A stretch of 64,000 nt of DNA from an uncultured Pseudomonadota bacterium (GCA_963770835.1 CAVYRH010000005.1:160001-224000), one strand, 5' to 3'; numbered from the stretch's first letter, positions 27,879-45,354 are shown. Translations and numbers: made by a program. Notes: generated by a model not told the origin, from the sequence alone.

Positions 27879-28967
27879 TTAGTGGTTTTTCCATACCAAT
27901 AGGATTGGTCCGACAACTGCGAATATGACATTCGCGATCCAGACGGATAAAAAGGGAGACACAACGCCGGATTCGCCCAGGTGCTGGCCGATCTGCATTC
28001 CCCCGATATAAGCGAAGGCTACCAGCGCGCAAATGCCGACGCTGGCGATAACACCCGTGTATTTACGCATGCTCCATCCCCAGGGCACCCCCAGAATGAC
28101 CATGATGATACAGCCGAAGGGTGAGGCGAACTTCAGGTAGAGGGTCACCAGTTCCTTGTGATAGTCCGACCCGTTGCGCTTGAGTTGTCGAATGTAGGTG
28201 GCCAGTTCCACCATGTTCAATTCGCCTGGTTCCTTTTGGGCTTTCAAGAAATCCGCGGGTTTCTCCGGGATTGGAAGGGGAAGGCGGTCGAAGGGCTGGT
28301 CCGAAATTTCAGCTCCCGTGTCGTCAAACGCCCTCCGGTAGCCTTCGAAAAAGACCCATTGGCCGTCCTCGTATTTCGCGCTTTGGGCGTCCAGGCGGGC
28401 TTTTAAACGGGTTTCCGAGTCGAACTCCAACATCAAGATATCCGACATAACATTGTTCGCCCCATCGAAGGAACTGATGTGGTAGATCTGCCCCTCGGCC
28501 CCGACCATGGAAATATTCTGGCGTTGGAGATTGGCTGACTCCTCCGTGTGTTTTGAGATTTCCACCCAAACGGTGTGGTGCTTTTGGGCCTCGGCCTTGG
28601 GAACGACGAGTTCGCTGAAGAGAAGGCTTATGGTGCAGATGAGTGCGCCGATGAAAAACAGGGGAACAGCCACCCTGTAAATATCGACGCCTCCGGAGCG
28701 CATGGCGATGAGTTCGTTCCCCTTGGAAAGCCCGCCGAGGGAAAAAAGGACCCCGAATAGGCAGGCGATAGGAATGATTTGAACCATAAAACCTGGGACG
28801 TAAAAAGAAAAATATTTAAGGGTTACCCAGATACTGGGTTTGAATTCCATCAAAAGGTGCATGTCGTTAAAAATTTGAACGATGAGGACAATAACGCTGA
28901 ATCCGGCCAAAGACAATGAAAAGGGTTTTAGAAACTCGCCCAAAATATATCTTGTGAGGACTTTCAC
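27879..28967 (-). CDS. lptG: LPS export ABC permease LptG-like
   Basis: VLTRYILGEF, NELIAMRSGGV, periplasmic domain, KFASPF and WIANVIF. Confidence 0.87.
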   Translation of the reverse strand: MKVLTRYILGEFLKPFSLSLAGFSVIVLIVQIFNDMHLLMEFKPSIWVTLKYFSFYVPGFMVQIIPIACLFGVLFSLGGLSKGNELIAMRSGGVDIYRVAVPLFFIGALICTISLLFSELVVPKAEAQKHHTVWVEISKHTEESANLQRQNISMVGAEGQIYHISSFDGANNVMSDILMLEFDSETRLKARLDAQSAKYEDGQWVFFEGYRRAFDDTGAEISDQPFDRLPLPIPEKPADFLKAQKEPGELNMVELATYIRQLKRNGSDYHKELVTLYLKFASPFGCIIMVILGVPWGWSMRKYTGVIASVGICALVAFAYIGGMQIGQHLGESGVVSPFLSVWIANVIFAVVGPILLVWKNH

Positions 28968-30121
28968 CGGATTCTTCCCCTTGTTCCTGCCCGGTGTCCC
29001 GGTGAAGGAAGATGCCTAAAAGCGGAGTGTTCCGCGACTACGAGGTAATAAACCGCGCATCCTGCGACTGCCAGGATTAAATTCGCCCCCCAAAGTCCAA
29101 TCACGGGGCTAAGGATACCCTGGTTGCTCAACAATTGTCCAAGCGTGAACATGAGGTAATAAATGAAAATAAGGGCCAGTCCCAGGACGAATCCCATGAA
29201 GCCCTTGGATTTTGTCCAGAGTCCCAAGGGAGCACAGAACCAGGCCAATACGAGGCAGGCAAAGGGCAAGGCCAACCTTTTCTGGAATTCGGTCTTTAAG
29301 TGATTGAGCCTCCCTGGGTCTTTTTCGAGGGGAATGGCGCGCCCCAGCTCGCCCAAGTCCATTTCTTCAAAATCCTTTTTGACGTCGTTCAGGTGGGCCA
29401 GCTGGTTCTCAAAGTTTAGCCGGATAATATAACGGTCGAAGTAAAGCTGATTGTAAGTGTGATAATTGCTGTTGTCCCAGCTCATGACGCCGTTGTTGAG
29501 ATGGAAAAAAACTTGGTAAGACTTCGGGTCGTTTACCAGAGCGCCCGTTTTGGCCACAGTCGTCTGTAGGGGAGCCTTGGGCGACCAATAATTGAAGGAT
29601 TTGATGTTCGAAAAAGAGCCGTCAGGCTCCTGGCGGTCGATCAAGAATCGGTAGTTTTCAAATTGGTCGATCCACACTTTTTCCCGGATTGCCAAATTGG
29701 CCTGTTTTTGAAGGATTTTAAATTGGGTTTCTTTGCAGATTAAGTTAGAGGCAGGCAGTACTTTGTCATTGAAGTAAATCATCGTACCGGTAAGCGCCGA
29801 ACCCATCACCAGTACAGGTGCTATTAGATGAAACAAATGGACTCCACTGCTTTTGAAGGCCGTGATCTCCATGTCAGAACTCAATCGCCCAAAGGCTAGG
29901 AGCGTTCCTACCATCATTGACATGGGAATGGTCATTGAAAGGATGAGCGGAACGAAACTGAGGTACAACACCGTTGTATCTAGGAAAGGAACTTTTTTAT
30001 TAAGTACCATATCTAAGAACAAAAAAATTTTATTTGTCATTAAAAGGGTGGTAAGTAAGGCGACGCACAACAGGAATGAGGGAGTCATTTCGCTAAGGAC
30101 GTAACGATAAACGGTTTTCAA
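28964..30121 (-). CDS. lptF: LPS export ABC permease LptF-like
   Basis: RYVLSE, GRLSSDMEITAFKSSG and EFQKRLALPFACL. TTG at 30121 follows AAGGA; the ORF track extends to 30187. Confidence 0.87.
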   Translation of the reverse strand: MKTVYRYVLSEMTPSFLLCVALLTTLLMTNKIFLFLDMVLNKKVPFLDTTVLYLSFVPLILSMTIPMSMMVGTLLAFGRLSSDMEITAFKSSGVHLFHLIAPVLVMGSALTGTMIYFNDKVLPASNLICKETQFKILQKQANLAIREKVWIDQFENYRFLIDRQEPDGSFSNIKSFNYWSPKAPLQTTVAKTGALVNDPKSYQVFFHLNNGVMSWDNSNYHTYNQLYFDRYIIRLNFENQLAHLNDVKKDFEEMDLGELGRAIPLEKDPGRLNHLKTEFQKRLALPFACLVLAWFCAPLGLWTKSKGFMGFVLGLALIFIYYLMFTLGQLLSNQGILSPVIGLWGANLILAVAGCAVYYLVVAEHSAFRHLPSPGHRAGTRGRIR

Positions 30122-30416
30122 CTCGAAATCCTTGAAAAGGTGATCACGACTTATTGACGATCGGGCGCTGCTTTTTCGGCGAACCACCGGTTTAAGTGGT
30201 TGAAAGCTGACATAGGGGGAACCTGGTGCGGGCAGTATAACACGTGTATTTGCGGCCCCGGAGCACGCTTTTAGGGGCCGGGAGGCGGTTCGGGTATCTT
30301 TTTCGTCCTTTCGAGGATTCCTCGTCCCAACTTTAGGGCGTGTGGGATAACTTTACCGTAGGGCAATCAAGCTCGGTTTGGAACGGTTTTAACCGTCGCC
30401 GGGGTTGATTTTGGGC

Positions 30417-30455: not shown

Positions 30456-30639
30456 AACATATCCATTTAGGAAACAGGGATAAACGTTGATTGAGATGGA
30501 TAAATTCAACTCCAAATCCGCGCTCGTTAACGTTCATCACTGTTCCAAATCCTTGGGGTTTGGGGAGTTGGAACACGTTGTCAAAGGTGAAAATAAGTCG
30601 TTCGGATCTTTTCGATATTGCTATCATCTCCAGGAACAA
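30454..30639 (-). pseudogene. Probable C-terminal remnant of a PilZ-domain gene
   Basis: LFLE...LIFTF...GTVMNVNERGFGVEFIHL resembles the last PilZ strands. An in-frame stop lies three codons upstream, so the RxxxR and DxSxxG motifs are missing. Confidence 0.4.
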
Positions 30640-30715
30640 GGGGTTTCATCCGGGTCAAACCCGGTTTGTTGAAGGAGGGGCCCCTCGAGTCAAGACCCGC
30701 CCGGGGGAATGGTGG

Positions 30716-31888
30716 ATGAAACCAGCGCCGAAGACGGACTTTTTTCTTGGGAAGTTCTTCCTCTTTTTCGTCAATAAATTCTTTTTTCTCGATTTTGAAA
30801 AATCCTTTGTTGTCTCCTGCCTCAGACTTTTTTTAATTTGGAACCCCCTTTGGACCCTCATCGTCACACTGATATTGGGAAACGGTACCCTCGCTCTCTT
30901 TGAATGGGGATGGAGATTCCTGGTAGCCACTCTTGTGTGCCTGCTGGGATTGACGGTCATCCGGCTTTTCACCCTCTCGGAAAAGGTTTGGATGGCCAGC
31001 TCGGATCGCACCCCGCCTAACCACGGCACGGGGTGGTATCTGTTGTTTCTGGGTATCCTGGCTCCTCTGGGGTCTTTCATAGCCCTGCACATGATGGTAG
31101 CTGGCATTAACCTTTTCTTCGCCGGTGCCCCCGTTACTGCGAACTTTCAATGGGAATATTATTGGAAAGAAATTCTATGGGTTTGGGCGCTTTTATTTGT
31201 TTGTTTCCTCTTCATTCACTGGCAGGAATTGAGAGACGCAGCCCAACAAGGGCAAATTCGGGCGGAGGAATTGGAAAAGGAAAGGTTGCAGGCCGCACTA
31301 GACAAATTGAAGGACCAGATGAATCCCCATTTCCTTTTCAACACCCTCAACACCGTGGCGGCCTTAATTCCTGCGGATCCGGTCAAGGCTGAGGAAGTGA
31401 TCGTCAAGCTTTCGAGTATTTTCCAGGGGGTTTTGGAAGCCACGCGCAAAGCCAATCATTCCTTGGAGAAAGAACTTGAGTTCTGCCGGAATTACCTGGA
31501 CATTGAAAAAGCCCGTTTCGGATCCCGACTGGTTTCGGAGATCGAGATCGAAAAGGGCCTGGACACCGCCGGAGTTCAAATACCGGTACTCTTGCTCCAG
31601 CCGTTGGTGGAAAACGCGGTGAAACACGGCCTTTCTTCCCGCGCGGCGGGGGGCAAGGTTTGGATCAAGGCTGCGTTGCGTGACGGCCGATTGGAAGTAA
31701 AAGTGGAAGATGACGGGGTGGGTTTTGGAAACTCGCCTTACGCCGGTTCCGGAACGGCCCTGGAGAACTGCCGCAAGAGGCTGGAATTGGGGTTTGAAAA
31801 AGAGGGACGGTTGGAAATAAGGCCCCGCGAAGGTGGTGGAACAACCATTTTCCTGTCCATGCCGGTTTTAACCGCGGATTCGAACTGA
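30716..31888 (+). CDS. LytS/YehU-type membrane sensor histidine kinase
   Basis: About 4 transmembrane segments, LKDQMNPHFLFNTLN, YLDIEKARF, LQPLVENAVKHG and DDGVG. Start uncertain; the ORF is open from 30491. Confidence 0.9.
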   Translation: MKPAPKTDFFLGKFFLFFVNKFFFLDFEKSFVVSCLRLFLIWNPLWTLIVTLILGNGTLALFEWGWRFLVATLVCLLGLTVIRLFTLSEKVWMASSDRTPPNHGTGWYLLFLGILAPLGSFIALHMMVAGINLFFAGAPVTANFQWEYYWKEILWVWALLFVCFLFIHWQELRDAAQQGQIRAEELEKERLQAALDKLKDQMNPHFLFNTLNTVAALIPADPVKAEEVIVKLSSIFQGVLEATRKANHSLEKELEFCRNYLDIEKARFGSRLVSEIEIEKGLDTAGVQIPVLLLQPLVENAVKHGLSSRAAGGKVWIKAALRDGRLEVKVEDDGVGFGNSPYAGSGTALENCRKRLELGFEKEGRLEIRPREGGGTTIFLSMPVLTADSN

Positions 31889-31923
31889 ATCGGCTTGGAA
31901 ATTAAACATTTCCTGGAGGAACG

Positions 31924-32673
31924 ATGATTAAGGCTTTGATCGTGGATGACGAGGCTCCCGCAAGGTCCCGGTTGGCCCGGATGCTCTCGGCCTTTGGGGA
32001 CTTGGAAGTGGTCGGTGAGGCCTCCAACGGCCTGGAAGCCCTCCAGACCGTCCAAAACCTCCAGCCCGACCTGGTATTCCTGGACATTGAAATGCCCGAA
32101 CTGAACGGTTTGGAAGTGGCGGAAGCCTGGGGCGGGAAAGGCCCCGCCGTGGTTTTCGTGACGGCTTATAGCGAGCATGCCTTAAAAGCCTTTGAGCTTT
32201 CGGCCCTCGACTACCTTGTGAAGCCCGTGTCCCCCGAGAGGCTGGCTGAGACCATCGAAAGGGTCCGCCGCCAAAAGGAACCCCGGCCCGCAGCCCATCT
32301 TCAAAAACTGATTGAGAGTTTGCAAGAAGGCCGAACCCGGCGGAGGATGGCCGTGAAGAGCGGGGCCAAGTACCGCGTTTTCGAGCCGTCCCAGGTTTCC
32401 GCCATTGTGGCCCGGGAGCATTATGCTGCCCTCCTGGTGGATGGCCAGGAATTGCTGGCCGACGACAGCCTGGACCAATTGGCCCAAAGGCTGGATCCGG
32501 CGAGGTTCTTGCGGATCCACCGCAGCGCCATCATTAACTTGGATTACTTGAGGGAACTGGAACACGAGGGGGACCGGAAATACACGGCGGTTTTATCGGA
32601 CCCGGCCAAAACCCGCCTGCCGGTCAGCCGCGAAAAGCTGGAGGATTTGAGGAAGGTGCTGGGTTTGGAATAG
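31924..32673 (+). CDS. LytTR family response regulator
   Basis: Receiver domain (VDDE, FLDIEMP, FVTAY, DYLVKP) plus LytTR motifs FLRIHRSAIIN and LPVSR. Confidence 0.93.
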   Translation: MIKALIVDDEAPARSRLARMLSAFGDLEVVGEASNGLEALQTVQNLQPDLVFLDIEMPELNGLEVAEAWGGKGPAVVFVTAYSEHALKAFELSALDYLVKPVSPERLAETIERVRRQKEPRPAAHLQKLIESLQEGRTRRRMAVKSGAKYRVFEPSQVSAIVAREHYAALLVDGQELLADDSLDQLAQRLDPARFLRIHRSAIINLDYLRELEHEGDRKYTAVLSDPAKTRLPVSREKLEDLRKVLGLE

Positions 32674-32793
32674 CAATCAGGAAAAATCCGGGAAGCCGGA
32701 TGGGCCCGAACCGACGGGAAAACGGCGGGATGCCTTTCCTGTCCCGAGGCCAAAAGTTTTTTGGGAGTTCGATGAATTGTGAGGCGGTTTTAA

Positions 32794-35700
32794 ATGGCAG
32801 TCGGCGGACTTACTCTTCAACATCTACAACGGCGGGCCCTCTTGGGCCTGGTGATGGTTTTCGCCTTTGTTTTGCCATTGAGGGCTTTCGGCCAAACACA
32901 GTTGACCGCTTCCTCCGGCCTTTCGTCCCCATCGGGTGCCGCAGTCAGTTCGGCCCCAGCAACGGATTTGACCGTCAGTTCCGATGAAGAGATTAAAATA
33001 TTAGACGCCATCGATTCCCAGTCCAACACTCCGAACGCCCAACAAACACCTTCGACGGCCGCTGCCCCCTCTACCCCGGTTTCAGCCTTAACCTCGGTGG
33101 CTTACGCCCCACCGAAGGCCCCCACGGGGTTAAGCGTATTGATCCTGAAGGAAGGGGTTTATCTTTCCTGGGATGCCGCACCGCCGGATTCGCCCGTCAC
33201 CGCCTACAACGTCTACCGGTCCACCACCCCCGGCGGGGGATACCGGCTGGTCAACGCCAAACCACTTTCGGCCCCCTATTTCCTGGATAGCGCCCAAAAT
33301 AGCCTGTCGCTTCCGAGGAACGGAGAGGATTATTTTTACGTGGTTTCCGCCACGGACTCCCAAGGCCAAACTAGTCCCGACTCGGATGAAATCACGGTTA
33401 CCCCCCAAGGCATGGATATTCCTGAGGAAGCGCAGGCCGCCAAACCCACTCCCACGGCCACTCCCGAGGAAAAGGAAATAGCGATCCCCGAAAAAAACAT
33501 CATCAATCTCCAGCTCCCGGCCGATACCCAGTTATCGATCCAGGGGTATAAAAAGATCGATGTCGCATTGGCTTTCCAGGATTTTTACAACCGGCCCGTG
33601 GCCAACGGCATCCTCCAGGAACAGGACACCACCCTCGTAAACCAGGAATTGGTGGTCAACTTGCAAGGAAAGGTGGGGAGAAACGTCGACGTGAACGTGG
33701 ATTATAGCGACGTCAACCGGGCCGGCGGTGTGGACCAAAGCAAACAGATAATTTCCATCGTCTACCACGGCGACCAGGACAGCCCGGTCCAGGAGGTGGA
33801 ATTCGGGGACCTCCAGCTGTTGCTGCCCAACACCGAGTTCGCGGGTTTCAGCAAAAACCTATTCGGGCTCCAGGCCAAGTTGAAATTCGACCAGTTCAGG
33901 CTCACTACCTTTTTCGCCCAGACCAAGGGTATCGCGGAAACCAAGACCTTCACCGGTAATTCCGTCCAGGTGGACAACGTGATCCAAGATATTACCTATA
34001 TCCCCAATAAGTATTTCCTCATCACCAGGGAATTTTTGACTCCAACCTCGACATCAAGTTCCAATGGAGCCCTTCCGACGCCCAATTCCGAGCAGATCTG
34101 GGTGGATGCGGGCAACGGCCAATTGAACCCTACCGGGCCTAATTTCGGGGGGCCTAACAATGCCTTCGAACATTGGTTACCGGGGCGGGATTACACCGTC
34201 GACTACACCACCGGCATCATTACCTTCATACGGGCCATGTCTTCCACCGCCAGGATCGCTGTTGGATTTACAAACCAAAACGGCCAGTACAGGGGCCTGA
34301 ACGCCTATAACAACAGCAACACGGCGAATTTCCCCAACACTACGCCCTCCACCAACCTCTTCGTCCCGGATGACGGGGTGGTCGGCGTTGCGGTCACTAC
34401 GGGCGCTAAACCACACGGCCCAGGATATTTGATCAAGGATAACAACAATTCCGTGGGCAACAGCTCTCCCAATGCCATCGCCCTTTCGCCCCTTTACTTG
34501 GTCAATTATTACAACCTTGGCACCACCAAGATCATTCCCCCGTCGGAAGATCCGAATTTTCTTTTCCAAATCATCAACAACAGCAACACTGTTCTTCAAA
34601 CAGGGCAAGGTGTCTCCCAAGTGGGCGCTTCCAATCCCTGGGTTTACAACGTGGACCTGGACTTCAACTACCTGACGGTCACCAATTCCAATTTCCTGGC
34701 CTCCAGCGCACCCCAGTCCTTTCTTTGGCCGGAACGTCCCTTCGCCAACTTGGACGCTACCGGTGGGTCCAGCTCCAGCGCGAGCCCGCCGGACGTCTAT
34801 TGCCAAACCGTCGCTCCTTTCAGCCAATACAGTATCCATATCCGCTACAAAACCGAATCCAGCAATTACAGCCTGGGACGGTTCAACATCATCCAGGGGA
34901 GCGAATCGGTCTTCCTGGACGGGCGCCGCCTGCGCCGGGACGTGGATTACCTGTTCGACTATACGTCGGGCTTCCTGGACTTCCCCGACAAGAGCATCCT
35001 CCGGCCGGACAGCCAGGTCGTGGTGAGTTACGAATACTCGCCCTTCGGAAGCTTCAGCCAGGACAACATCCTGGGGGCCCGGGCCGAATACGACCTCACC
35101 GACAATTTCTTCATCGGTTCCACCTTCCTGGAGGAGGACGCCCAGCAGCCCATCGACACTCCCCAGATCGGTTCCACTCCCAATTCCCTGACCCTCTTCG
35201 ACGCTGACACCCGGCTGGACTTGTCCCAGGACGACGTGAAATCCCTCACGAGCGCCATTCCCGGCCTGGAAAACTGGAAACCGCCCTTGAGCGTCAAGCT
35301 GTCGGGCGAGGTCGCGCAAAGCTATTTCAACCCCGACACCTTCAACGCGGAAGGGGAGAGTGGCGTGGCTATGATCGATAACATGGAGGGCATCGACAGT
35401 GTGACCGGGGCTTCCACGAACCAAACCAGCTGGCTGGTTTCGGCGGCCCCTGAGCCCGTGGCCTTCCTGGGGAATATACCCTACGACGCGGGGCCGGACC
35501 CGACCAATAACCGCACCCGGTTTTACTGGGCTGGCGCCCCCAACTCTAATATGGAAGTTTTCCAGACCATCGGAACCCAAAACACCGGGTCCGCGAACTT
35601 TACCAACGTTCCGGCCTACGGCGGCCATATCTACGCCCAGACGCAACAAGCCAACGACGCGGTCCAGGTCCTTCAATTTCCTTACAGTAACTTAACCAGC

Positions 35701-38700
35701 AATCAATGGGCGGGGCTTCGGCAGATTATTTCCGTCAACGGAACGGACTTTTCCAACGTTACCTACCTTGAAAGCTATGTTTATAACGACGGCAAACCCA
35801 AATGGATCATGGTGGATTTTGGGGTGATGAGCGAGGAATCCAATGGGGTAGTGAACGCTGCCCCTGGAAGCATTACCTTTTCTGATCCCAATGAATACGC
35901 CCAACCACAACTGCCGGCGAATTCGGCCTATGGTTTGCCGACTTTTTACTATCAAGGCAACCCTTGGTCGGCGGACGGAAGCTATGCCGCGCCGGTGAGC
36001 GGGCTGATCCGGAATGAGCAGACTTCCCAAGAAGGGGTCAGCGTGGGAAGTGGCACCAGTTACGTCAACGAGGACCTGAACGGCGACAATATCCTGGAAG
36101 GAAACTCCAACGATGCCTATTACGAATACGGCATCCAGGCCAACTGGACCGGATGGCATGAGATAAAAATACCTGTCAACTTCACGGCGCCGGACAGCAT
36201 GAGCACCACACCCGACGGGATCACGTACTTTTTTCATACCCAAGGTTTGGCCAGCCCCACCATCATTCGCACGGCCCGGCTTTGGATGACGGGTACAAGC
36301 CCCTCTCCAGTTAGCGGGGACGTTTATTTCGAGAATATTAGTTTTGCCCACAACCTTTGGCAGCTACAGGTGGACCCCACGGCCCCTGCCGGCGTGACGG
36401 TCAATACCTCCGAGTTCGACGCGAATTCCATCAGCCAGGACCAGAACCCCAGTTACCAACCAACCTTGAGGTTCTTGACCGTTGAGGCCGGCCAGGACCA
36501 ATCCGCAATCCTGTATAAGGAAAAAGCCCTGGAACTCACTTACAGCCTGACACAAGGGGATCCTTACAATGGAATGCTATATGCCACCCGTCTTTTCAAC
36601 CAGGGTGTGGACCTCACCGACTACCTGGATCTTCGCATCGATCTTTATATGCGGGCATTTCAGCCGGGGGACGTATTGTATGTCCGCCTGGGCAACGACC
36701 CGCAGGACTATTACCAGTACAACATCGATTTAAGCGCGGCTGCCGTCACTTGCTTGAATACCTGGGGGGTGGTGGACCTTCCGTTAAGTGGTTCGGGGGG
36801 CAACCGCTCGCAGGTGGGAACGCCCTATATCAACCGCACCTCTACTGTCAGTTTCGGCATCATTTCGCACAGCGGGGTATCGGGTTTCGTGGGGGACCTT
36901 TGGATCAACAACCTGCGCGGCGTCAACTCCAACGTGCGAAGCGGCGTGGCCCGGCGTGCCGACGCAGCTTTCCTTATCGGGGACGATTCCAAGAAGCCCT
37001 TCGCTACGGTCAACACCCGGTACAGGGAAGTGGACTCGGGTTTCACGGAGATCGACCAGACCAGCACCCATTTCCAGCATTCCACCCAATTGGGGGCGGA
37101 CTACACTTCCAGCGGGGTGTCCCTTTTCTCCCAGCCGCTGGTAACCCAGGCCTCTTATACCCACCAAGACCTGACTACCGAGTCCGCCTTGCTCAACAAC
37201 CCCTATTACATCGCCCTGCCCAACACCCACACCGACAACGCCACGGGGAGCATCAGCTATACCAAGGACCTGGGGGCTTCCTGGGGCCGTTTGACGGCTG
37301 TGCGGCTATCGGGAAGCTACGACTACGAAATCGACAACTTCCCCACTAGCGACTACCTTTCCCAACCGGGGGTGCAAGGAAACACCCTGAAAGACCAGGA
37401 AGTCTATACGCTGGCCTCCACTTACGACGCCCCCCAGAAGTTCTTCTTCCTGCCTATTGGGGCCAACCAGCTCACGGAAACCTACAGCCTTACCCATAAT
37501 TACCAGGGGTACCTTCCCCCGAACAACCTCGAACTGGCGAGTTACGACCGGACCACCCGGATGCAGACTTATGGCTGGACCAACACGACGGAGATCGTGA
37601 AAAACCTTGTTTTCACCCCTGGTTATACTTGGACCCTTACCGACGCGGAAGGGAACACCACCTCACCGGGCGTTCCGGTATCCATTTCCAGTTATTCCCC
37701 GACTTTCACGCCCTTCCAGGAGCAGACACAGCCCAAGGCGGGGCTGGTGTACCGGGGCATTCCAGGCCTCATCCCCTCGGTGGCCTATACGGGCAGTAAC
37801 GGTTACGACTGGTTTTCCTATCAGGACGGACTTCGGTTTAACAATGCAAATACGCTTAACTACACCTTCAACTTTACGCCCAGCAGCTGGTTCGGTTTCC
37901 TGCAAAAAATAAACCCAACCGTGACCGCGAGCCGGACGGACAACGCCACGGCCGCCATTCCCGGCTACCACAACGGGCTTTTGAACTTCTGGCAACAATG
38001 GCTCATCGACCCTGATTTCAACGACTCCCTTACGGCCAGCCAATCGCGGACCGACCAGCTGACCGCAGAATTCAAGCTATTTGACGTGTGGGATTTCAGG
38101 CCCAACGCCTCCTGGAACAACCAGTTGAGCCTGCTTTCCCAGGGAACGAATCCGGTGCAGCAATATGGGAAAACGCTCGGCCTTACGACCGTCTATAACC
38201 ATAAACTCTTCACCCTGCCCCTGGTGCCCCTTACCATGGATTCCGCCCAGTTCCAATATACCCATACGGACAGTACCCAGTATGATTCTTCCATACCGCC
38301 TAATATTTCTAATGAGACCACCAGCGACCTCTATGGAATCACGCTGCCTTACGAGCTCGGCAAGAATTTTGCCCAGGGCAACATCCATTTGCAGCGCACC
38401 ACGGGCACCCAAAACGGACTTTCCACCTTGAACACCCTCGTGACACAATTGGACGACCAAGCCACCATCGAATACGACCAAAAATTGGCTCCCAACCTGG
38501 AGTTGCACATTCCCTTCACGCATTGGAAAATAAAGCTGGATAACGCCATCGAACTCAAGGCCACCTTCCTGATGGAATTCGTCAACAACCAGTCCACTTA
38601 CATCACCAATGAAACCCTGACCCAAAGGTACCGTGGTACAATCGACATCAATTACAATGCCCTTAAAAACCTGCGAATCGGCATCGGCCTGGCAAATGAG

Positions 38701-38778
38701 TATTTTACAAACACCCTAAATAACCAATTAGATTACGTCCTATGGCAGGGTGACATTTCGGCCGAGGCGCGGTTTTAA
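32794..38778 (+). CDS. SprA/Sov-like giant outer-membrane protein (T9SS translocon-like) with N-terminal FN3 domain
   Basis: Signal peptide. SprA-like blocks in order: VQEVEFGDLQLLLP..NLFGLQAKLKF, GRDYTVDYTTG, FNIIQGSESVFLDGRRLRRDVDYLFDYTSG, ILGARAEY..FFIGST, LSGEVAQS..AMIDNMEG, NEDLNGD, VRLGND..YYQY, LWINNLR. Amphipathic beta-strand C-terminal region ending in Phe (EARF). Confidence 0.75.
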   Translation: MAVGGLTLQHLQRRALLGLVMVFAFVLPLRAFGQTQLTASSGLSSPSGAAVSSAPATDLTVSSDEEIKILDAIDSQSNTPNAQQTPSTAAAPSTPVSALTSVAYAPPKAPTGLSVLILKEGVYLSWDAAPPDSPVTAYNVYRSTTPGGGYRLVNAKPLSAPYFLDSAQNSLSLPRNGEDYFYVVSATDSQGQTSPDSDEITVTPQGMDIPEEAQAAKPTPTATPEEKEIAIPEKNIINLQLPADTQLSIQGYKKIDVALAFQDFYNRPVANGILQEQDTTLVNQELVVNLQGKVGRNVDVNVDYSDVNRAGGVDQSKQIISIVYHGDQDSPVQEVEFGDLQLLLPNTEFAGFSKNLFGLQAKLKFDQFRLTTFFAQTKGIAETKTFTGNSVQVDNVIQDITYIPNKYFLITREFLTPTSTSSSNGALPTPNSEQIWVDAGNGQLNPTGPNFGGPNNAFEHWLPGRDYTVDYTTGIITFIRAMSSTARIAVGFTNQNGQYRGLNAYNNSNTANFPNTTPSTNLFVPDDGVVGVAVTTGAKPHGPGYLIKDNNNSVGNSSPNAIALSPLYLVNYYNLGTTKIIPPSEDPNFLFQIINNSNTVLQTGQGVSQVGASNPWVYNVDLDFNYLTVTNSNFLASSAPQSFLWPERPFANLDATGGSSSSASPPDVYCQTVAPFSQYSIHIRYKTESSNYSLGRFNIIQGSESVFLDGRRLRRDVDYLFDYTSGFLDFPDKSILRPDSQVVVSYEYSPFGSFSQDNILGARAEYDLTDNFFIGSTFLEEDAQQPIDTPQIGSTPNSLTLFDADTRLDLSQDDVKSLTSAIPGLENWKPPLSVKLSGEVAQSYFNPDTFNAEGESGVAMIDNMEGIDSVTGASTNQTSWLVSAAPEPVAFLGNIPYDAGPDPTNNRTRFYWAGAPNSNMEVFQTIGTQNTGSANFTNVPAYGGHIYAQTQQANDAVQVLQFPYSNLTSNQWAGLRQIISVNGTDFSNVTYLESYVYNDGKPKWIMVDFGVMSEESNGVVNAAPGSITFSDPNEYAQPQLPANSAYGLPTFYYQGNPWSADGSYAAPVSGLIRNEQTSQEGVSVGSGTSYVNEDLNGDNILEGNSNDAYYEYGIQANWTGWHEIKIPVNFTAPDSMSTTPDGITYFFHTQGLASPTIIRTARLWMTGTSPSPVSGDVYFENISFAHNLWQLQVDPTAPAGVTVNTSEFDANSISQDQNPSYQPTLRFLTVEAGQDQSAILYKEKALELTYSLTQGDPYNGMLYATRLFNQGVDLTDYLDLRIDLYMRAFQPGDVLYVRLGNDPQDYYQYNIDLSAAAVTCLNTWGVVDLPLSGSGGNRSQVGTPYINRTSTVSFGIISHSGVSGFVGDLWINNLRGVNSNVRSGVARRADAAFLIGDDSKKPFATVNTRYREVDSGFTEIDQTSTHFQHSTQLGADYTSSGVSLFSQPLVTQASYTHQDLTTESALLNNPYYIALPNTHTDNATGSISYTKDLGASWGRLTAVRLSGSYDYEIDNFPTSDYLSQPGVQGNTLKDQEVYTLASTYDAPQKFFFLPIGANQLTETYSLTHNYQGYLPPNNLELASYDRTTRMQTYGWTNTTEIVKNLVFTPGYTWTLTDAEGNTTSPGVPVSISSYSPTFTPFQEQTQPKAGLVYRGIPGLIPSVAYTGSNGYDWFSYQDGLRFNNANTLNYTFNFTPSSWFGFLQKINPTVTASRTDNATAAIPGYHNGLLNFWQQWLIDPDFNDSLTASQSRTDQLTAEFKLFDVWDFRPNASWNNQLSLLSQGTNPVQQYGKTLGLTTVYNHKLFTLPLVPLTMDSAQFQYTHTDSTQYDSSIPPNISNETTSDLYGITLPYELGKNFAQGNIHLQRTTGTQNGLSTLNTLVTQLDDQATIEYDQKLAPNLELHIPFTHWKIKLDNAIELKATFLMEFVNNQSTYITNETLTQRYRGTIDINYNALKNLRIGIGLANEYFTNTLNNQLDYVLWQGDISAEARF

Positions 38779-38780
38779 CC

Positions 38781-41700
38781 ATGAAACCTAAAGACAGCCA
38801 AAAGTCGACAGTCCGCAGTCGGCAGCAACAGCCGCAAAAAACTTGGCTGTGGACTATTATTATTTTTGGGGTTTGTTCGTGGGCAGGGGCCCAGCCGCCT
38901 ACCCCCACAGGCCTGACTGTCTTGCCGCCTTATGATGGGCAAATCAACCTCATTTGGGCGCCGGATTCCAATGCTACTCCGACCGTTTCGGAATACCAGA
39001 TAATCCGACAACTTTGGGATGCAACTTTGACTCCCACGCCCAACCCAATCGGAACGCCTACCCCGATTGCGACAGTTCCTCTTCAAACAATCCCCAGCCC
39101 AGGCACGCCGGTTTACCAGGATTTCCAGGTGACCAATGGACTAAATTACTTTTACCAGGTTTCAGGGGTGGATTCAGGCGGTAATGTGGGGGCGGCCGCA
39201 ACAGTCAACGGGTCCCCCTATTTGGGTCCCGTCGCCGTCCAGCCCGTCGGAGTCCAAAATATCCATTCGAACGCCCTGGATCTTTCCTGGGGAGTTCCCA
39301 ATTCCAGTTACCCTGTTTCCTATTATCAGGTCTACCTTTATCAATACCCTACCTACACCCCAACACCCACCGGAACCTTGGCTCAGGCGACGAATACCCC
39401 CACCCCTCCCTTTCCCGTTGCAACCGTACCGGCTTCCGCGGCTTTGAGCAATACACCCCTAGCCGCTGTTTCGGGAACGACCTATAGCGACACGACCTCC
39501 AACTCCTCAGGCTCCCCGGCCTTTTATTACGTGGTCATGGCCGTGGACAGCCAAGGACATGTGAGCACTCCTCCCGCTTCTGCCGCGGGACCAGCTTTGC
39601 CCCATAATATGGCTTCCCCTGGGCCGCCGGCGCTTTCTGTGTTGGTTGGCCCAGCGGTTTCCCCGACTATTATTCCTTCGGGGTATGGCGCCCGGCTCGT
39701 TTGGACGGGTTCGCTTACTTCTGAAGGCGTGACGGTTTATCAGGTTTTTCAGAACAGCACGCCCATTGCCACCATTCCTTATCAACCAGCAACGCCCACC
39801 GTTACTTATGATGACACGACCCTTCCGGAGGGAAACGGATCCTTGGCGGTCACTTACAGCGTGGTTGCAGTTAATACTTACGGGGTCGGTACTTCCAACA
39901 GCGTTTCGGTTTCTTTGATCGCGGCCAATGAGTCCACGAATATTCAAGTTACGCCCAACGCCACTTCGGGCGCCGTTACAATTACCTGGAACCCCGCGAC
40001 GCCTGGAATCTATGGGCTAGTCGGATACCGTCTCTATAAGAGCCTCTTTGGGGTCCCGACCTTTAATCAGACGCCTATCCCATCCATAAGCCCGACGGCC
40101 ACATTGACACCCACGCCCTTTGCCATTGTGACTTTCAATCCCTCGGCCACCTTTACCCTGACCCCTTACGTGGATTCCCCGCCTCCCAATCTCAACCACA
40201 TGAACTATTGGGTGGAGCCGGTGGATGCGACGGTGCATGGGGGGTTCACGAACTCAGCTTCAACCCCCGCGCTTAATCTCGCGCCAACGCCTCCGTCCTT
40301 TCCCGGCGTGGCCCCCCCGGTGGGGAACAACCAAATCGCGGTCTCCTGGACGGCTGGAGGCGCGGGATTTTTTGGAACACCGGTGGATTATGTTGTTTAC
40401 CGGGTCATCTTGGGAAGCCCTACTCCTACTGTTCAAGCGGTTGCAACCGTTGGGTTCACACCCACCGCAACCCAGGTGAGTTATACCGATATCGTGCCTG
40501 GAGCTACTCCAGGGACGGAAATTGATTATCAGATCGGACTGGTGGACGTGATGGGGAACACCTCGGACCTTAGTACCTTAGGAAACCAGGTTTTCTCAAC
40601 GGGAGTGACAGTACCGGCCGCTCCCACTGTACTTCCGATGGCTGGGTCGGCGGCTTCAATTCGTTTTTGCTGGTTGAATAATCCCCTTGCGGATAGTGTG
40701 ACAAGTTATTCGGTTTTCGGCCCGGACTTGCCAACCATAACCCCAATTGCAACCCCACTCGCCGTGGTTTTTGTCCCCCCACTCTCCACTCCGACCCTGG
40801 TTTTCGCACCCACTCCAAACCCTTGGGCGGCCACCTTTTACTATCTTTCGGCCCAGAATAGTGTGGGTTCTAGCGCGCCAGCCACCCTTTCTGGAATTCC
40901 AGTGCCGCTTTATACGGTAACCGCAGTCATTCCTCCGGGTACACGGCAGGCCCAAGTGTCGTGGACAATGGTACCCGCACCGGTTTCAACGCCATTCGTG
41001 GATAGCTATGGGATTTACCGTTCCTTGCAACCCACTGCGTGTTTTACACCCATTGCCACGGTGATCATTCCGGGCGGGTCCTACACGGATGTGTTGCCGG
41101 CGGCCACGGCGGGTGTCAGTTATTACTACCGCGTCACGGCAAGGGCGGACGACCTCAACGGGCATTTGGCGGAGAGCTCGCTCCATCCCGCTATGACCCC
41201 AGATCCCCTTGGAAGTATCCAGGCCTGGCCCAACCCGCCCAGCGGTTTCACGGCTTTATCAGGTGTAACCCAAACTACCCTAAATTGGGCTGAGAATACT
41301 CCGCAGGAAGGTGTGACAAGCTATACGGTTTATTGGTATGGGACGGGGACTCCAACACCAATCGCTACTGTTTTGGCTACACAAGGCCCTTCGACGGTTT
41401 ATTCTTTCGTGGCTACTGAAACACCTGGAAACCAGTCTTCTTACGATGTAGTGGCGAATAATCCCTCTGGGCCGAGCGATGCGTCCCAATCCATTACGGT
41501 CTTGGTGCCCCCCTCCATGACACCCAACATTGCTCTTTCGCCACCAACTTGGTTTGTCCCTGCGGCCACGATCACGCCGGGGGTCTGGATATCGGGGTTC
41601 ACTTATCCCGGTGCTGTAAGTGGTTATTCCGTCTATTGGTTAAGCATTCCTACACCGGGGGGAACAATCACCCCCTCGCCCACTCCCGCCTATATATCTG

Positions 41701-43454
41701 TCGGGTCAGTGGTGGAGGGTATATCGACACCGGTCATCGAAGCTTCGCAAATGGCCGTAGGTTACGTGAACAATTACCAAGTTGTGGCCAATAACGGAGG
41801 ATCTGTTACCGCAGTGTCAACTATTTCCGCACCATTAACTGTCGCCCTTTGGCCCGCAGCGCCCAATCCAACCTTATTACCAAGCAACAATTCGGTTACG
41901 GTGGCCTGGGGCACACCGGTGGGCAATGTCACTGTAACCAGCTACGACATCTATCGGAACATTTACCCCACCATGACCCCGGTAATGATTGCCTCGAACC
42001 TGTCTTCCGCCACTACGGTTTACCCGGATTCGCCATTGACCAATGGCACGGCCTACCTCTATTGGATGGATGCCCAGAATGCATCGGGGGGGGTGAGTTA
42101 TTTTTCGGCTCCCCAAACCATCATTCCCCTGCAGCAGGCGCCCACCATCGCCATTACGCCATTACCCGAACGAAACCAGATTTGTTGGCTCCCGATTTCA
42201 GTGCCGACGACCAGCCCGGTCACGGGCTTTGCGGTTTACCGGGCCATCCCGACTCCCGGTGTTGTACCCAACTTCGTTGTGTTGCCGGGGGGAACCCTCG
42301 TGGAACCCCTCTCCAACACCAGTTACGTCGATGCGACGGTTAGCGATGGAGTGTCTTACCTATATGAGGTGGCTCCTACCTCGGCAAACGGCATTTTGGG
42401 GCCCTTTTCCAATCAAGCGGCCGTCAATGTTTTTCCCCAGCCGGTTACTGACCTTGTCGCCGCTTCGGGGGATACGCTGGTTCAACTGAGGTGGGAATAC
42501 CAAGGGGTAGCGAATAACACCTATTTCATTACGCGTAAATTAGGGACCGCGCCCAATAGTTCAGCCCAGACCCTGAGGACGGGTTTCCAGGGGTTGAATT
42601 TCAATGACTCTGGTGTCGTCGACAAAAATTTTTATATTTATAACATTTACACGGTGGACGCCAATGGATTGACTTCCAATACTTCCGCGGCAGTGACGGC
42701 CCTTCCGGCAGCGGGACCGGCCCTTCCCCTTGTGTCAATACAAGGATCGAACGGTTCAATAACCACTGCTCCCGTGACCTTGACACAAAATACGGTTAGT
42801 ACCCAGACCGCGATTGGGAACTCTCTTAGCTGGGGCGGGGCCGACCAAGCCAGCGGACCAGCCTCATTCAACTCCCAAACCATGTATCCCCTGGGTGGAT
42901 ATGAAGTTTCCAGTTCCTCGGATGGCGGGAATGTTTACCAAATCCTTGCGACCCTTCCGGTTACTCTTGTGAATGGATATCCAGCCCCGGTTGTTGGCTA
43001 TTTTGACCAAGTACAGTTGGTAAGTGGAAGTACCTATTCGTATTTGGTCCAGGCTTTTGACAATCCGCCGGATCTTCCGGTGCCGCTTTCCCAGGCGGTT
43101 ACCGAGGGATGGGTTCACGTTGTACCCTATCAACCGGTGAACGCCTATCCTATCAGTCCCAATACGGCCTTGGACCGGAACGCCATCCGGCCCTTCGGGG
43201 CCAGCAATGAACAGATCGTGAACATCCGCTTTGTGGTCACTTCGAAAGGAAACGTGGATATCAAGGTTTACACTTTGGACGGCACCTTCGTAAAGGAATT
43301 GGTAAACCAAAGTTACTCCCAACCCGGCATTTATTGGACTAAGTGGGACGCCCGCAACCGGATCGGTAACCTGGTGGCCTCTGGAGTTTATCTTGTCACC
43401 ACCGAATCCCCCGGTGGGCACCAGGAGTTTGAAAAAGTTGCAGTTATTAAATGA
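38781..43454 (+). CDS. Large secreted protein with about 13 FN3-like domains, Pro/Thr-rich inserts and a C-terminal FlgD-Ig/T9SS-CTD-like domain
   Basis: Signal peptide ending AGA-Q. Repeated (L/I/V)xW...Yx(V/I)YR...YxD...YxYxVxA units. C-terminus VDIKVYTLDGTFVKEL..WDARNRIGNLVASGVYLV..EKVAVIK. Confidence 0.8.
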   Translation: MKPKDSQKSTVRSRQQQPQKTWLWTIIIFGVCSWAGAQPPTPTGLTVLPPYDGQINLIWAPDSNATPTVSEYQIIRQLWDATLTPTPNPIGTPTPIATVPLQTIPSPGTPVYQDFQVTNGLNYFYQVSGVDSGGNVGAAATVNGSPYLGPVAVQPVGVQNIHSNALDLSWGVPNSSYPVSYYQVYLYQYPTYTPTPTGTLAQATNTPTPPFPVATVPASAALSNTPLAAVSGTTYSDTTSNSSGSPAFYYVVMAVDSQGHVSTPPASAAGPALPHNMASPGPPALSVLVGPAVSPTIIPSGYGARLVWTGSLTSEGVTVYQVFQNSTPIATIPYQPATPTVTYDDTTLPEGNGSLAVTYSVVAVNTYGVGTSNSVSVSLIAANESTNIQVTPNATSGAVTITWNPATPGIYGLVGYRLYKSLFGVPTFNQTPIPSISPTATLTPTPFAIVTFNPSATFTLTPYVDSPPPNLNHMNYWVEPVDATVHGGFTNSASTPALNLAPTPPSFPGVAPPVGNNQIAVSWTAGGAGFFGTPVDYVVYRVILGSPTPTVQAVATVGFTPTATQVSYTDIVPGATPGTEIDYQIGLVDVMGNTSDLSTLGNQVFSTGVTVPAAPTVLPMAGSAASIRFCWLNNPLADSVTSYSVFGPDLPTITPIATPLAVVFVPPLSTPTLVFAPTPNPWAATFYYLSAQNSVGSSAPATLSGIPVPLYTVTAVIPPGTRQAQVSWTMVPAPVSTPFVDSYGIYRSLQPTACFTPIATVIIPGGSYTDVLPAATAGVSYYYRVTARADDLNGHLAESSLHPAMTPDPLGSIQAWPNPPSGFTALSGVTQTTLNWAENTPQEGVTSYTVYWYGTGTPTPIATVLATQGPSTVYSFVATETPGNQSSYDVVANNPSGPSDASQSITVLVPPSMTPNIALSPPTWFVPAATITPGVWISGFTYPGAVSGYSVYWLSIPTPGGTITPSPTPAYISVGSVVEGISTPVIEASQMAVGYVNNYQVVANNGGSVTAVSTISAPLTVALWPAAPNPTLLPSNNSVTVAWGTPVGNVTVTSYDIYRNIYPTMTPVMIASNLSSATTVYPDSPLTNGTAYLYWMDAQNASGGVSYFSAPQTIIPLQQAPTIAITPLPERNQICWLPISVPTTSPVTGFAVYRAIPTPGVVPNFVVLPGGTLVEPLSNTSYVDATVSDGVSYLYEVAPTSANGILGPFSNQAAVNVFPQPVTDLVAASGDTLVQLRWEYQGVANNTYFITRKLGTAPNSSAQTLRTGFQGLNFNDSGVVDKNFYIYNIYTVDANGLTSNTSAAVTALPAAGPALPLVSIQGSNGSITTAPVTLTQNTVSTQTAIGNSLSWGGADQASGPASFNSQTMYPLGGYEVSSSSDGGNVYQILATLPVTLVNGYPAPVVGYFDQVQLVSGSTYSYLVQAFDNPPDLPVPLSQAVTEGWVHVVPYQPVNAYPISPNTALDRNAIRPFGASNEQIVNIRFVVTSKGNVDIKVYTLDGTFVKELVNQSYSQPGIYWTKWDARNRIGNLVASGVYLVTTESPGGHQEFEKVAVIK

Positions 43455-43461
43455 AAATAAA

Positions 43462-44196
43462 ATGGTAAATACGGGTTTCCTCGACTTTCTTTTTCCCAAG
43501 GCCTGCCAACGGTGCGGGGAAGGGTTTCGGGAGGGACTTTCCAATATTCTTTGCAAGGCTTGTTTTGATTCTATTCCCGCTTATGAAGACCCTGTTTGTG
43601 ACCATTGCGGGATTTCACTGCTTGCCAGATCCTTTGAGGACGCGCTCCGGTTTCGATGCCGCGACTGCGGCGAGGATAATTATTTTTTGGATAAGGTCCG
43701 GGCGGTTGGATCCTATGACGGGGCGTTGAGGATCGCCCACCATGGGTTTAAATTCGAGGGCATGGAGTTTTTGAAGCTGGCCTTGGCGGGGAGGATGGTT
43801 TCTTCCTCCATTCCGGCTTTCTGGGGGGAGGTTGAGGCCTTGATACCCGTGCCCCTCAGCGCTGAACGGGAAAGGGAAAGGGGTTACAATCCCGCGGCCC
43901 TCCTGGCGGTAGAAATCTCGAAAATAATTCGAATCCCATTTCGACCAATGCTCCGGAAAATAAAATCGACCAAACCGCAAATGTCCCTGACACGGGAAGA
44001 ACGGTTAAGGAATCCAAAAGGTGCTTACCAAGTTAAGGATGAAGGACCGGTTCCGCTTAAAGTGATCTTGGTGGACGACGTTTTCACTACCGGAGCCACT
44101 CTGGAAGAATGCGCCAAAGTTCTAAAAAAATCTGGAATAACTTGGGTAGGAGCAATTGTCTTTGGCAGGACACAACACCACTACCGGCAAATTTAA
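43462..44196 (+). CDS. comF: ComF family protein (double zinc ribbon plus phosphoribosyltransferase domain)
   Basis: LDFLFPKACQRC, four CxxC motifs, IPVPL..RERGYNPA and LVDDVFTTGATL. Confidence 0.92.
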   Translation: MVNTGFLDFLFPKACQRCGEGFREGLSNILCKACFDSIPAYEDPVCDHCGISLLARSFEDALRFRCRDCGEDNYFLDKVRAVGSYDGALRIAHHGFKFEGMEFLKLALAGRMVSSSIPAFWGEVEALIPVPLSAERERERGYNPAALLAVEISKIIRIPFRPMLRKIKSTKPQMSLTREERLRNPKGAYQVKDEGPVPLKVILVDDVFTTGATLEECAKVLKKSGITWVGAIVFGRTQHHYRQI

Positions 44197-44283
44197 ATTT
44201 AGACAAATTCAATTTCGAAACTCGACAATTTTCCTATTTCGATCAAACGTCATGATTGCCTTCGACATCCATGATGCCTGCTC

Positions 44284-44312
44284 TTGACCACTTAAACCCC
44301 ATATGCTAGCTT
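44284..44312 (+). promoter_or_regulatory. Putative sigma70 promoter for the gap operon
   Basis: TTGACC-N17-TAGCTT with a TG extension. Confidence 0.55.
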
Positions 44313-44346
44313 GGCCGCTCTTAATCCACTCTTTTGGGAGGATTCT

Positions 44347-45354
44347 ATGGCAATCAAGGTCGGTATCAACGGTTTTGGCCGTATCGGGCGCAATGTTTAC
44401 CGCGCCGCGATGAATAACAAAGACATTGATATTCTTGCGGTCAACGACCTCACGGACGCGAAAACACTAGCCCACCTTTTGAAATACGATTCCGTGCTGG
44501 GAAACCTCCACGCGGACGTGAAGGCTGGCGACGGGACCGTCATCGTGAACGGCAAGGAAATTAAGGTTTACGCCGAAAAAGATCCGGCCGCCATTCCCTG
44601 GGGCAAGCACGGCATCGAGTACGTGGTTGAATCCACCGGCCGCTTCACCGACAAAGAGAAGGCTGTTGTCCACATCAAGGACAGCGTCAAGAAGGTCATC
44701 ATTTCCGCGCCCGCTAAAGGCGAGGATATTACCATTGTCTTGGGCGTGAACGAAGACAAGTACGATCCCAAGAACCACCATGTTGTTTCCAACGCTTCCT
44801 GCACCACCAACTGCCTGGCACCGTTCGCCAAGGTGCTCCACGACAAGTTCGGCATCGTTAAGGGATTGATGACCACCATCCATAGCTATACCAACGACCA
44901 GGTCATCCTGGACTTTCCCCATAAGGACCTGCGCCGCGCCCGCGCCGCGGCCCTGAATATGATCCCGACCTCCACGGGGGCCGCCAAGGCCATCGGCTTG
45001 GTCATGCCGGAGATGAAGGGAAAATTGGACGGGTTGTCCATCCGCGTGCCGACCCCGACGGTTTCGGTGGTCGACTTGGTGGTGGAGTTCACAAAAACCG
45101 TCACGAAGGATGACATCAACAACGCTTTAAAAGAGGCGGCAAAGAGTCCCAAACTGGATAAATACCTTGATGTCACCGACGAGCCCTTGGTTTCGATGGA
45201 TTTCAAGGGGAACCCCCACTCCTCGATCGTGGATGCCCAATCCACCTTCGTGAGCGGCGGAAATATGGTGAAAGTGCTTTCCTGGTACGACAACGAATGG
45301 GGTTATTCAAACCGGGTCGTGGACCTAATCGAGTATATGGCCTCCAAACACTAA
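44347..45354 (+). CDS. gap: Type I glyceraldehyde-3-phosphate dehydrogenase
   Basis: [22 protein letters not shown] and [15 protein letters not shown] ribosome-binding site before ATG 44347. Confidence 0.98.

Follow-up and report, generated by a model that had tools for sequence, protein, structure and literature searches.

The genome of an uncultured bacterium that appears to lie outside the FCB group encodes an SprA/Sov homologue (gene A) directly followed by an FN3-repeat protein with a sorting-domain tail (gene B), together with many PorV/PorQ-family carriers and tail-bearing proteins. We consider it probable that these parts form a type IX pore-carrier-tag core working without a Gld motor or PorU sortase, with B as a dedicated accessory.

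The window analysed was the whole stretch of 64,000 nucleotides. Checking of ORFs placed gene A at 32794..38778 (+ strand; 1994 aa with a terminal Phe) and gene B at 38781..43454 (+ strand; 1557 aa), joined as TAA-CC-ATG with 2-nt spacing, and B ends in the motif IKVYTLDG..V..L..WDARN..G..VASGVY..KVAVIK, all as given in the first-pass annotation. Both proteins start, by eye, with a hydrophobic stretch resembling a Sec signal. Genes for a LytS-like histidine kinase and a LytTR response regulator lie upstream of A on the same strand (30491..32673, +) and lptF and lptG are divergently transcribed (27879..30187, −; PF03739); these and a Skp/OmpH gene (22074-22592) were assigned by Pfam, and CheD-like (54-476) and CheC-like (5587-6219) ORFs by eye only. 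Shine-Dalgarno use, which had been proposed from the window, was borne out genome-wide by a GGAG/AGGA/GAGG peak at −11/−10 over 1010 ATG-started genes. Sigma-70 promoter matches in 29800-44600 were not enriched (8 versus 9.0 ± 3.1 in shuffles), and the promoter/terminator scan stayed at chance level.

Gene A is an SprA/Sov homologue, as its ordered blocks had suggested. It matched TIGR04189 in four stretches with 203.6 bits (E 3.5e-60; cut-off 200), and profiles of the A family matched only Flavobacterium johnsoniae SprA among PDB sequences; profiles were required, a single-sequence PDB search with A giving no match. In Foldseek searches SprA provided the top four matches for each of two partial AlphaFold2 models, with E values of 1.4e-36 to 2.0e-32 for an A model and 3.8e-5 for the next match. 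The models covered residues 795-1994 (mean pLDDT 84.3, pTM 0.50) and 228-900 (mean pLDDT 69.6), and both have a pTM of about 0.5 and superpose poorly on SprA (rmsd 12-13 Å and 24-27 Å). A occupies a single locus in the genome. Pfam gave no match for it, ESM Atlas gave only leads below 0.9 (SprA_N in 12-20% of members), and a phage search with Bacteroidota SprA added nothing. The TIGR04189 cut-off is passed only barely.

A very large barrel had been expected, and A is predicted to be a 36-stranded outer-membrane pore, the count being the sum of long strands over two partial models (7 + 4 + 25) that were assigned to the barrel by reading of the strand list, and not a view of the whole barrel. 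The first seven strands would span approximately residues 246-377 (33529..33924, +), the middle four residues 757-844 (35062..35325, +; also placed by the SprA alignment) and the last 25 residues 1382-1992 (36937..38769, +), followed by the terminal Phe, which is invariant in 52/52 aligned sequences. Two large inserted domains flank the middle four strands. An FN3 profile built from B orthologues matched the N-terminus of A with 63 bits (approximately residues 105-205; 33106..33408, +) and 39 of 53 aligned SprA sequences, the motif being visible by eye in four more; most A homologues carry one to three copies. Since this FN3 region precedes the barrel, it is predicted to be periplasmic.

Repeat and profile searches resolved B into a signal-like N-terminus, a tandem array of 12 called FN3 repeats with one repeat-sized gap (about 13 repeats), and a C-terminal sorting domain. 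The repeat number ranges from 3 to 18 across orthologues, whose profile matches titin and other tandem FN3 structures; a single-sequence PDB search with B returned one weak FN3 match, and ESM Atlas returned FN3 and sorting-domain clusters. No Pfam family was matched by B at E ≤ 0.01, and the searches revealed no catalytic or enzyme domain in it, nor any tip domain with an adhesive or catalytic function. Its tail (approximately residues 1462-1557; 43164..43451, +) is divergent and type A/FlgD-Ig-like; the T9SS style claimed for it holds, more weakly than implied, with 20.5 bits against TIGR04183 (cut-off 23), a cut-off that some other proteins of the genome exceed. Its best match was the PorZ tail (30 bits), which was also the best-scoring tail model in 21/23 B orthologues; 18/23 matched FlgD_ig and six of the 23 TIGR04183 at E ≤ 0.01. 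The PorZ-like tail was considered as a mark of a resident component and is weak as such, since an equal score was obtained for one of the 34 other tails.

Binding of the B tail to a PorV-family carrier is predicted. The modelled complex with a PorV-family barrel of the same genome scored 0.79, against 0.02 for the best control, relative to a mark reached by 116/157 solved pairs and 2/215 mismatched pairs; the runs shared at least 88% of contacts, with partner pLDDT of at least 81. Because similar PorV-tail complexes have been solved (8GL6, 8GL8), this pass may reflect those known structures.

That B might be a dedicated partner, conserved beside sprA in relatives, agrees with its distribution: orthologues are single-copy in 73/99 phylum genomes and, of the 52 cases that could be tested, 51 adjoin sprA. 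The adjacency is shared by families whose other sprA neighbours differ entirely. B is absent from families f4-f7 (0/13 genomes) and from 8/11 genomes of family f9, with 22 candidates scored per genome, and is therefore not essential for the pore. It was found only where the sampled SprA has N-terminal FN3 domains, a co-occurrence that counts once for f4-f7, which form one clade in the SprA tree. From the strict linkage, the single copy and the lack of an active domain, B is likely to be a dedicated accessory of the pore.

Two other roles for B were weighed against this evidence. B could be exported as an ordinary rod or adhesin of the cell surface, its gene being kept beside sprA only by shared regulation and inheritance, which we hold to be somewhat unlikely: its variable FN3 number resembles that of surface stalks, it is missing from several families, and a second FN3-rich tail protein of the genome (2414 aa) has its own carrier gene, whereas the persistence of one copy beside sprA amid wholly different neighbours, the lack of a tip domain and the restriction to SprAs with N-terminal FN3 all speak for a tie to the pore. 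Alternatively, B could remain periplasmic, its tail lodged in the lumen of the pore, and serve as a plug or scaffold that replaces Plug/SprE-SkpA and touches the FN3 domains on the A N-terminus; in F. johnsoniae the periplasmic extension docks at the N-terminus of SprA, and this site is essential (PMC10994853). The FN3 domains of A are of the same type as those of B, and the two show nested co-occurrence, but the predicted carrier binding would have B exported. Moreover, 13 to 18 tandem FN3 domains would exceed the usual width of the periplasm, and we judge this arrangement unlikely. The role of dedicated accessory is thus retained below.

The sprA gene was found in 92/99 genomes of the phylum, which makes it a phylum-wide feature rather than a local oddity. 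In a SprA tree (FastTree; 516 columns from one half of the gene, rooted at the midpoint without an outgroup) the A clade included spirochaete-labelled sequences and stood apart from FCB SprAs, and an SprA with 55% identity, from a record that bears the label candidate division FCPU426, nested within the host's family. On these grounds the host is placed provisionally outside Bacteroidota and FCB, grouping with the FCPU426-labelled record, in agreement with the suggestion that it did not look like Bacteroidia; names of UvrB homologues gave no placement. FCPU426/Goldbacteria have been listed with PVC (PMC12057145) and positioned beside Firestonebacteria and Elusimicrobia (PMC7031533). Recent acquisition of sprA from Bacteroidota was considered and is not supported by the frequency of the gene or by its tree position.

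Around sprA, lptFG is a conserved neighbour across the phylum (30/49 loci), and the LytS-like kinase and LytTR regulator occur in 13/49 and 12/49 loci, respectively, nearly all from the host's family. A further lptF/G-lptD pair sits between two PorV-family genes. Both lpt arrangements would suit a pore with a non-export role, for example one tied to LPS transport, and we regard such a role as highly improbable given that the many tail-tagged proteins and carriers fit protein export. Divergently oriented neighbours of envelope genes are, besides, commonplace.

An iterated profile built for this analysis found a terminal tail match in 122 proteins, 7.4% of the genome. This figure is an upper bound, since one probable flagellar FlgD is counted in it, as are several short FlgD-Ig proteins beside ECF sigma factors; TIGR04183 matched 45. 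Glycoside hydrolase domains (GH5, 8, 9, 28, 30, 44, 62 and 116) were present in 11 of 46 scanned tail proteins and protease domains in two. Export of more than 100 tagged proteins is likely on this sequence evidence. PorV/PorQ-family ORFs numbered 24, with 17 over the NF033709 cut-off, and all of six scanned carriers scored far below the PorV/PorQ equivalog cut-offs; the family is over cut-off in 99/99 phylum genomes. Twelve of the 24 lie directly downstream of a gene with a terminal tail, versus a background of 2.9%. C-terminal extensions were found on 17/24 (TPR in 9, FN3 in 4, OmpA-like in 3); these are expected on the periplasmic side, where they could serve as tethers for the carriers. 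Accordingly, the earlier description of the system as reduced stands for the motor and sortase, which were not found, but not for the carrier and cargo side, which is expanded.

The first-pass annotation had also recognised no PorK/L/M/N, PorV or PorU-like genes in the window, which proved correct for the 39 other ORFs of the window (no T9SS family by Pfam) and, genome-wide, for the Gld/PorK-N motor and PorU, but not for PorV/PorQ. GldK, GldL, GldM and GldN gave nothing at E ≤ 0.1 in the host genome (96.4% complete), and Cardinium GldK/L/M/N sequences used as queries gave no match better than E 0.23. Across the phylum, GldM was found in 0/99 genomes by an HMM search that gives 331 bits on a Cardinium plasmid, the only positive control among the HMM searches; GldN was found in 0/60 and GldL over cut-off in 0/60. 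GldK was searched in the host genome only, and the model matched three control genomes below cut-off. No C25 domain was present in the host genome or its family (0/31); it occurred in 8/99 phylum genomes, and eight such proteins that were scanned scored at most 84 against a PorU cut-off of 420. An apparent inverse relation between B and the C25 proteases of f9 was considered and dropped, these proteins scoring far below PorU and having no PorV-family gene within the stretches examined. PorP/SprF was not found in the host genome; across the phylum, mostly weak matches were obtained in 19/60 genomes, 12 of them over cut-off. Of five MotA/ExbB genes, one is apparently flagellar and four belong to ExbBD-TonB sets, three of which adjoin TonB-dependent receptor-like genes; none of the five adjoins sprA or a carrier.

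Release of cargo from the pore requires energy in F. johnsoniae (PMC10994853), and a motor might therefore exist that is too divergent for HMMs built on Bacteroidota. A complete type IX system of this kind, with motor and ring diverged past detection and B as mere conserved cargo, would be compatible with the narrow pass of A and the low equivalog scores of the carriers, since smaller parts could then escape detection. We nevertheless find it quite unlikely: A and the carriers were detected at E < 1e-40, whereas the four Gld proteins left no trace at E ≤ 0.1 in the host genome, the controlled GldM search was negative throughout the phylum, and the GldK model, which reaches distant relatives in control genomes, found none in the host.

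Under the preferred reading of a core without motor or sortase, A, B and cargo would cross the inner membrane via Sec, as their signal-like N-termini suggest. A would then fold into a capped, laterally open barrel of the SprA type, as homology and the strand count of the partial models indicate. At the opening, the loops of a PorV-family barrel would receive the cargo tail, as in F. johnsoniae and as modelled for the B tail. The carrier would depart with its cargo and hold it on the surface; in a system that lacks a sortase the tail would probably remain uncut, and cargo would therefore stay there. Release would probably proceed without a Gld-type track. Exchange driven by the large carrier pool is, by a cautious preference, favoured over an energiser that escaped recognition, for instance an ExbBD-TonB set, an option that is itself quite plausible. 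B is most likely exported too and then stays bound to a carrier close to the pore, where it would act structurally or as a gate. PorU and PorZ are likewise tail-bearing components rather than nutritional cargo.

In recent papers SprA is described as specific to FCB (PMC12611786), and tail-bearing proteins are said to be confined to that group (PMC12398890); a literature search found no description of such a system. A non-FCB phylum with the pore, carriers, about 120 tagged proteins per genome and no detectable motor makes two questions testable: what constitutes a minimal type IX machine, and whether its motor was there from the start or added later. More speculatively, and with less than even confidence, the SprA pore, PorV-type carriers and tails may form a self-sufficient system for export and display that is older than FCB and lacks motor and sortase, in which carriers tethered to the cell wall or periplasm double as permanent anchors, B is a new core subunit gating or resetting the pore via FN3 on the A N-terminus, and the Bacteroidota motor is a later add-on. 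The system could also provide a display route for the many cellulases of FCPU426/Goldbacteria, for which the accessible part of PMC7031533 names no export route.

Compared with SprA of F. johnsoniae (PDB 6H3I, 6H3J, 8GL6, 8GL8) and Sov of Porphyromonas gingivalis, A is homologous along most of its length and shares the order of barrel and inserted segments, the 36 long strands, the terminal Phe and the single copy; it differs in being about 400 aa shorter, in its low structural-alignment identity (12-15%), in its one to three N-terminal FN3 domains and in forming a clade separate from FCB SprAs. The system as a whole resembles the Bacteroidota T9SS (SprA-PorV, GldLM, GldKN, PorU/PorZ/PorQ) in its pore, its PorV/PorQ-family carriers, its type A-like tails and a cargo rich in polysaccharide-degrading enzymes, but GldK/L/M/N, PorU and PorP/SprF were undetected in the host genome, the host is flagellated and outside FCB, and its 24 carriers, most of them fused to TPR, FN3 or OmpA-like domains, take the place of one general PorV. 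Carrier genes directly downstream of cargo genes recall type B cargo and its cognate PorP/SprF shuttles in F. johnsoniae (PMC12618676), an analogy that suggests dedicated, non-recycled anchors; the paired barrels of the host, however, belong to the PorV/PorQ family (NF033709) and not to PF11751, and the tails resemble type A and FlgD-Ig domains. B differs from PorZ and PorU in consisting of FN3 repeats without a beta-propeller or C25 domain, and resembles them in a tail that scores best against that of PorZ and in component-like behaviour (single copy, sprA-linked); it is a candidate lineage-specific subunit.

The two reading frames proposed in the first-pass annotation were recovered as described: gene A (window 32794-38778, +; 1994 aa, terminal Phe) and gene B (window 38781-43454, +; 1557 aa), with two bases between them. 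Both lie on contig C5; the assembly (4.58 Mb) is rated 96.4% complete and shows clear Shine-Dalgarno use. The proposed promoters gained no support: sigma-70 matches in window 29800-44600 numbered 8, against 9.0 +/- 3.1 in shuffles. A belongs to the SprA family. A Pfam scan gave no match for A; the resemblance to SprA recognised by eye was confirmed with the NCBIfam SprA model (203.6 bits against a cut-off of 200, E 3.5e-60), for which A was the only locus in the genome. Profiles of the two halves of A, made from about 50 relatives, matched only F. johnsoniae SprA among 177,635 PDB sequences (E 9e-37 and 1e-28), and Parabacteroides SprA as query found A at 7e-15. The expected structural likeness was borne out by two partial models, both of which matched SprA chains best: with residues 795-1994 (AlphaFold2; pLDDT 84, pTM 0.50) the four SprA chains scored E 1.4e-36 to 2.0e-32 and the following match 3.8e-5, and for residues 228-900 (pLDDT 70) those four chains were the only matches at E<=0.001. 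From our reading of the strand lists of these part models, with high rmsd values and the full barrel above the folding size limit, A is predicted to have 36 long strands (7 N-terminal, 4 middle and 25 C-terminal), the number reported for SprA (PMC10994853). An FN3 domain lies N-terminal of the barrel, as it does in one to three copies in 39 of 53 aligned SprA sequences by profile and in four others by eye.

SprA was matched in 92/99 genomes of the host phylum (58/60 of those of high quality) and in 9/9 genomes of a further small phylum (seed record labelled Elusimicrobiota). In a FastTree of 60 SprA sequences (516 columns, midpoint root, giving no direction of descent), FCB-labelled sequences formed a single clade (support 1.0); the other (0.97) held sequences labelled as spirochaete, those without a name and those of the host phylum. 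A SprA from a record titled candidate division FCPU426, 55% identical to A, nested within the host's family. A long SprA-like stretch close to the end of a Synechococcus phage record (MK799832.1, 203388-206507) is probably contaminating bacterial DNA. Elsewhere in the window, Pfam placed LpxC and FabZ domains in one reading frame (23611-24993, +), a fusion known from Bacteroidota and relatives; the skp-lpxD-lpxC/fabZ-lpxA-lpxI run was preceded not by bamA but by a beta-helix gene and two short ORFs of 121-126 aa. FCPU426 corresponds to Goldbacteria, with Firestonebacteria and Elusimicrobia as nearest neighbours (PMC7031533), and PMC12057145 groups these with PVC.

In the whole genome, nothing was detected for GldK, GldL, GldM, GldN or peptidase C25 at E<=0.1, or for PorP/SprF at E<=0.001. 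The GldM search gave 331 bits on a Cardinium plasmid as positive control, and the GldK/L/M/N sequences of that plasmid reached a best E of 0.23 against the host genome. Across the phylum, GldM was found in 0/99 and GldN in 0/60 genomes, and GldL gave one sub-threshold match among 60. C25 domains in 8/99 genomes, scoring far under the PorU cut-off, and PorP/SprF-like matches in 19/60 count against a clean absence. Tail-bearing, gingipain-like C25 proteases of 870-1657 aa, not PorU, were seen in some families (stretches L130-L137).

PorV/PorQ-family carriers were over cut-off in 99/99 phylum genomes. The host had 24 such ORFs (17 over cut-off), 17 of them with C-terminal extensions that included TPR (9), FN3 (4) and OmpA-like (3) domains. 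Twelve of the 24 lay directly behind a gene with a terminal sorting tail (background 2.9%), after one internal-domain case had been left out of the 13 called by script. An iterated profile started from the tail of B found 122 proteins with a terminal match (7.4% of the genome), an upper bound that takes in a probable FlgD and some short regulatory-looking proteins; 53 exceeded 1000 aa and 18 carried tandem tails, 17 ending in three copies and one in two (e.g. C4:515311-518076, C3:329914-334704 and C26:693286-699111). Independently of this profile, TIGR04183 gave 45 matches. Among the 46 tail proteins scanned, those within 20 fetched regions, 11 had glycoside hydrolase domains and two had protease domains. 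At C26:248000-390000, genes for carriers, CBM proteins and glycoside hydrolases with tails were densely clustered. In the window, a secreted-looking 961 aa protein (55779-58664, +) combined CBM9-like and carboxypeptidase-regulatory-like domains with a probable glycoside hydrolase in its C-terminal half, and bore no sorting tail.

Near carriers, a module of ECF sigma factor, 210-240 aa FlgD-Ig protein, PorV-family barrel with TPR tail and cargo gene was repeated (L081:8636-12951, L093:304-3582, L089:7328-11835, L080:301-4082), possibly a surface-sensing circuit made from secretion parts. A five-gene run (L086:304-7768; C11:239582-247049) comprised a PorV-FlgD-OmpA fusion, a TPR/TolB-like lipoprotein candidate, a long TPR protein, a 522 aa barrel-like protein and a stand-alone PorV-family barrel, and is a candidate core accessory operon. 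At L087:304-11181 (C2:18126-29006), two stand-alone PorV-family genes flanked genes for a proline-rich 748 aa protein, a third LptF/G, an LptD-like protein and uvrA.

The tail of B had been called type IX-like; its best match was indeed the PorZ tail, but it is divergent, at 20.5 bits below the TIGR04183 cut-off of 23. Modelled with the best-conserved stand-alone carrier (C2:18126-19109), it scored 0.79 against 0.02 for the best control, on a mark reached by 116/157 solved and 2/215 mismatched pairs; runs had at least 88% of contacts in common, with partner pLDDT at least 81. Because like complexes are already solved, the model indicates compatibility of carrier and tail and is not proof of binding. 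Before the tail, B consists of about 13 FN3 repeats (12 called and one repeat-sized gap), numbering 3-18 in 22 orthologues, whose profile matched tandem FN3 structures, titin among them; a catalytic domain was not detected. Such an array could be an ordinary surface rod, which we regard as possible though doubtful. A profile covering the C-terminal 345 residues of B matched 73/99 phylum genomes at E<=1e-40, once per genome except for one weak second match. Among the 68 of these with a listed sprA position, both genes shared a contig in 52, within 12 kb in 51, and lay on separate contigs in 16 fragmented assemblies. The profile found B in 0/13 genomes of families f4-f7, whose sampled SprAs were without N-terminal FN3; in family f9, B was not found in 8/11 genomes and sampled SprAs retained that FN3 domain. 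Since SprAs sampled from f4, f5 and f7 fall into a single clade (FastTree), this joint absence is one event and not a statistic. That B is a dedicated accessory of the pore appears to be the best reading; a periplasmic plug or scaffold seems improbable.

Pore, carriers and tails most likely act, by analogy, as in F. johnsoniae until the tail docks on carrier loops inside the pore, a step described in PMC10994853. There, cargo release requires a GldLM-driven chain (PMC10994853, PMC12635249); as this is undetectable in the host, release would be spontaneous, aided by the large carrier pool, or powered by an unrecognised energiser. The genome holds four ExbBD-TonB sets, none linked to the pore or carriers; one, at C11:170921-177603 (L102 and flank), behind genes for a 981 aa TPR protein and a barrel-like protein split in two by ORF calling, is a candidate energiser. 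In the absence of a sortase the tail is probably not removed, and cargo would remain attached to its carrier, consistent with the pairing of cargo and carrier genes.

SprA has been called FCB-specific (PMC12611786) and tail-bearing proteins limited to FCB (PMC12398890). No description of such a system outside FCB was found in the open-access literature searched. If non-Bacteroidota FCB phyla are also without the motor, the motor-free state would be more widespread and in part already contained, implicitly, in published tables. The retained cargo would resemble type B cargo with cognate shuttles (PMC12618676). The host system differs from canonical T9SS in having no detectable motor (GldL/GldM), ring (GldK/GldN) or sortase (PorU); that its pore-carrier-tail system is real is well supported, and by analogy it would work like type IX secretion.
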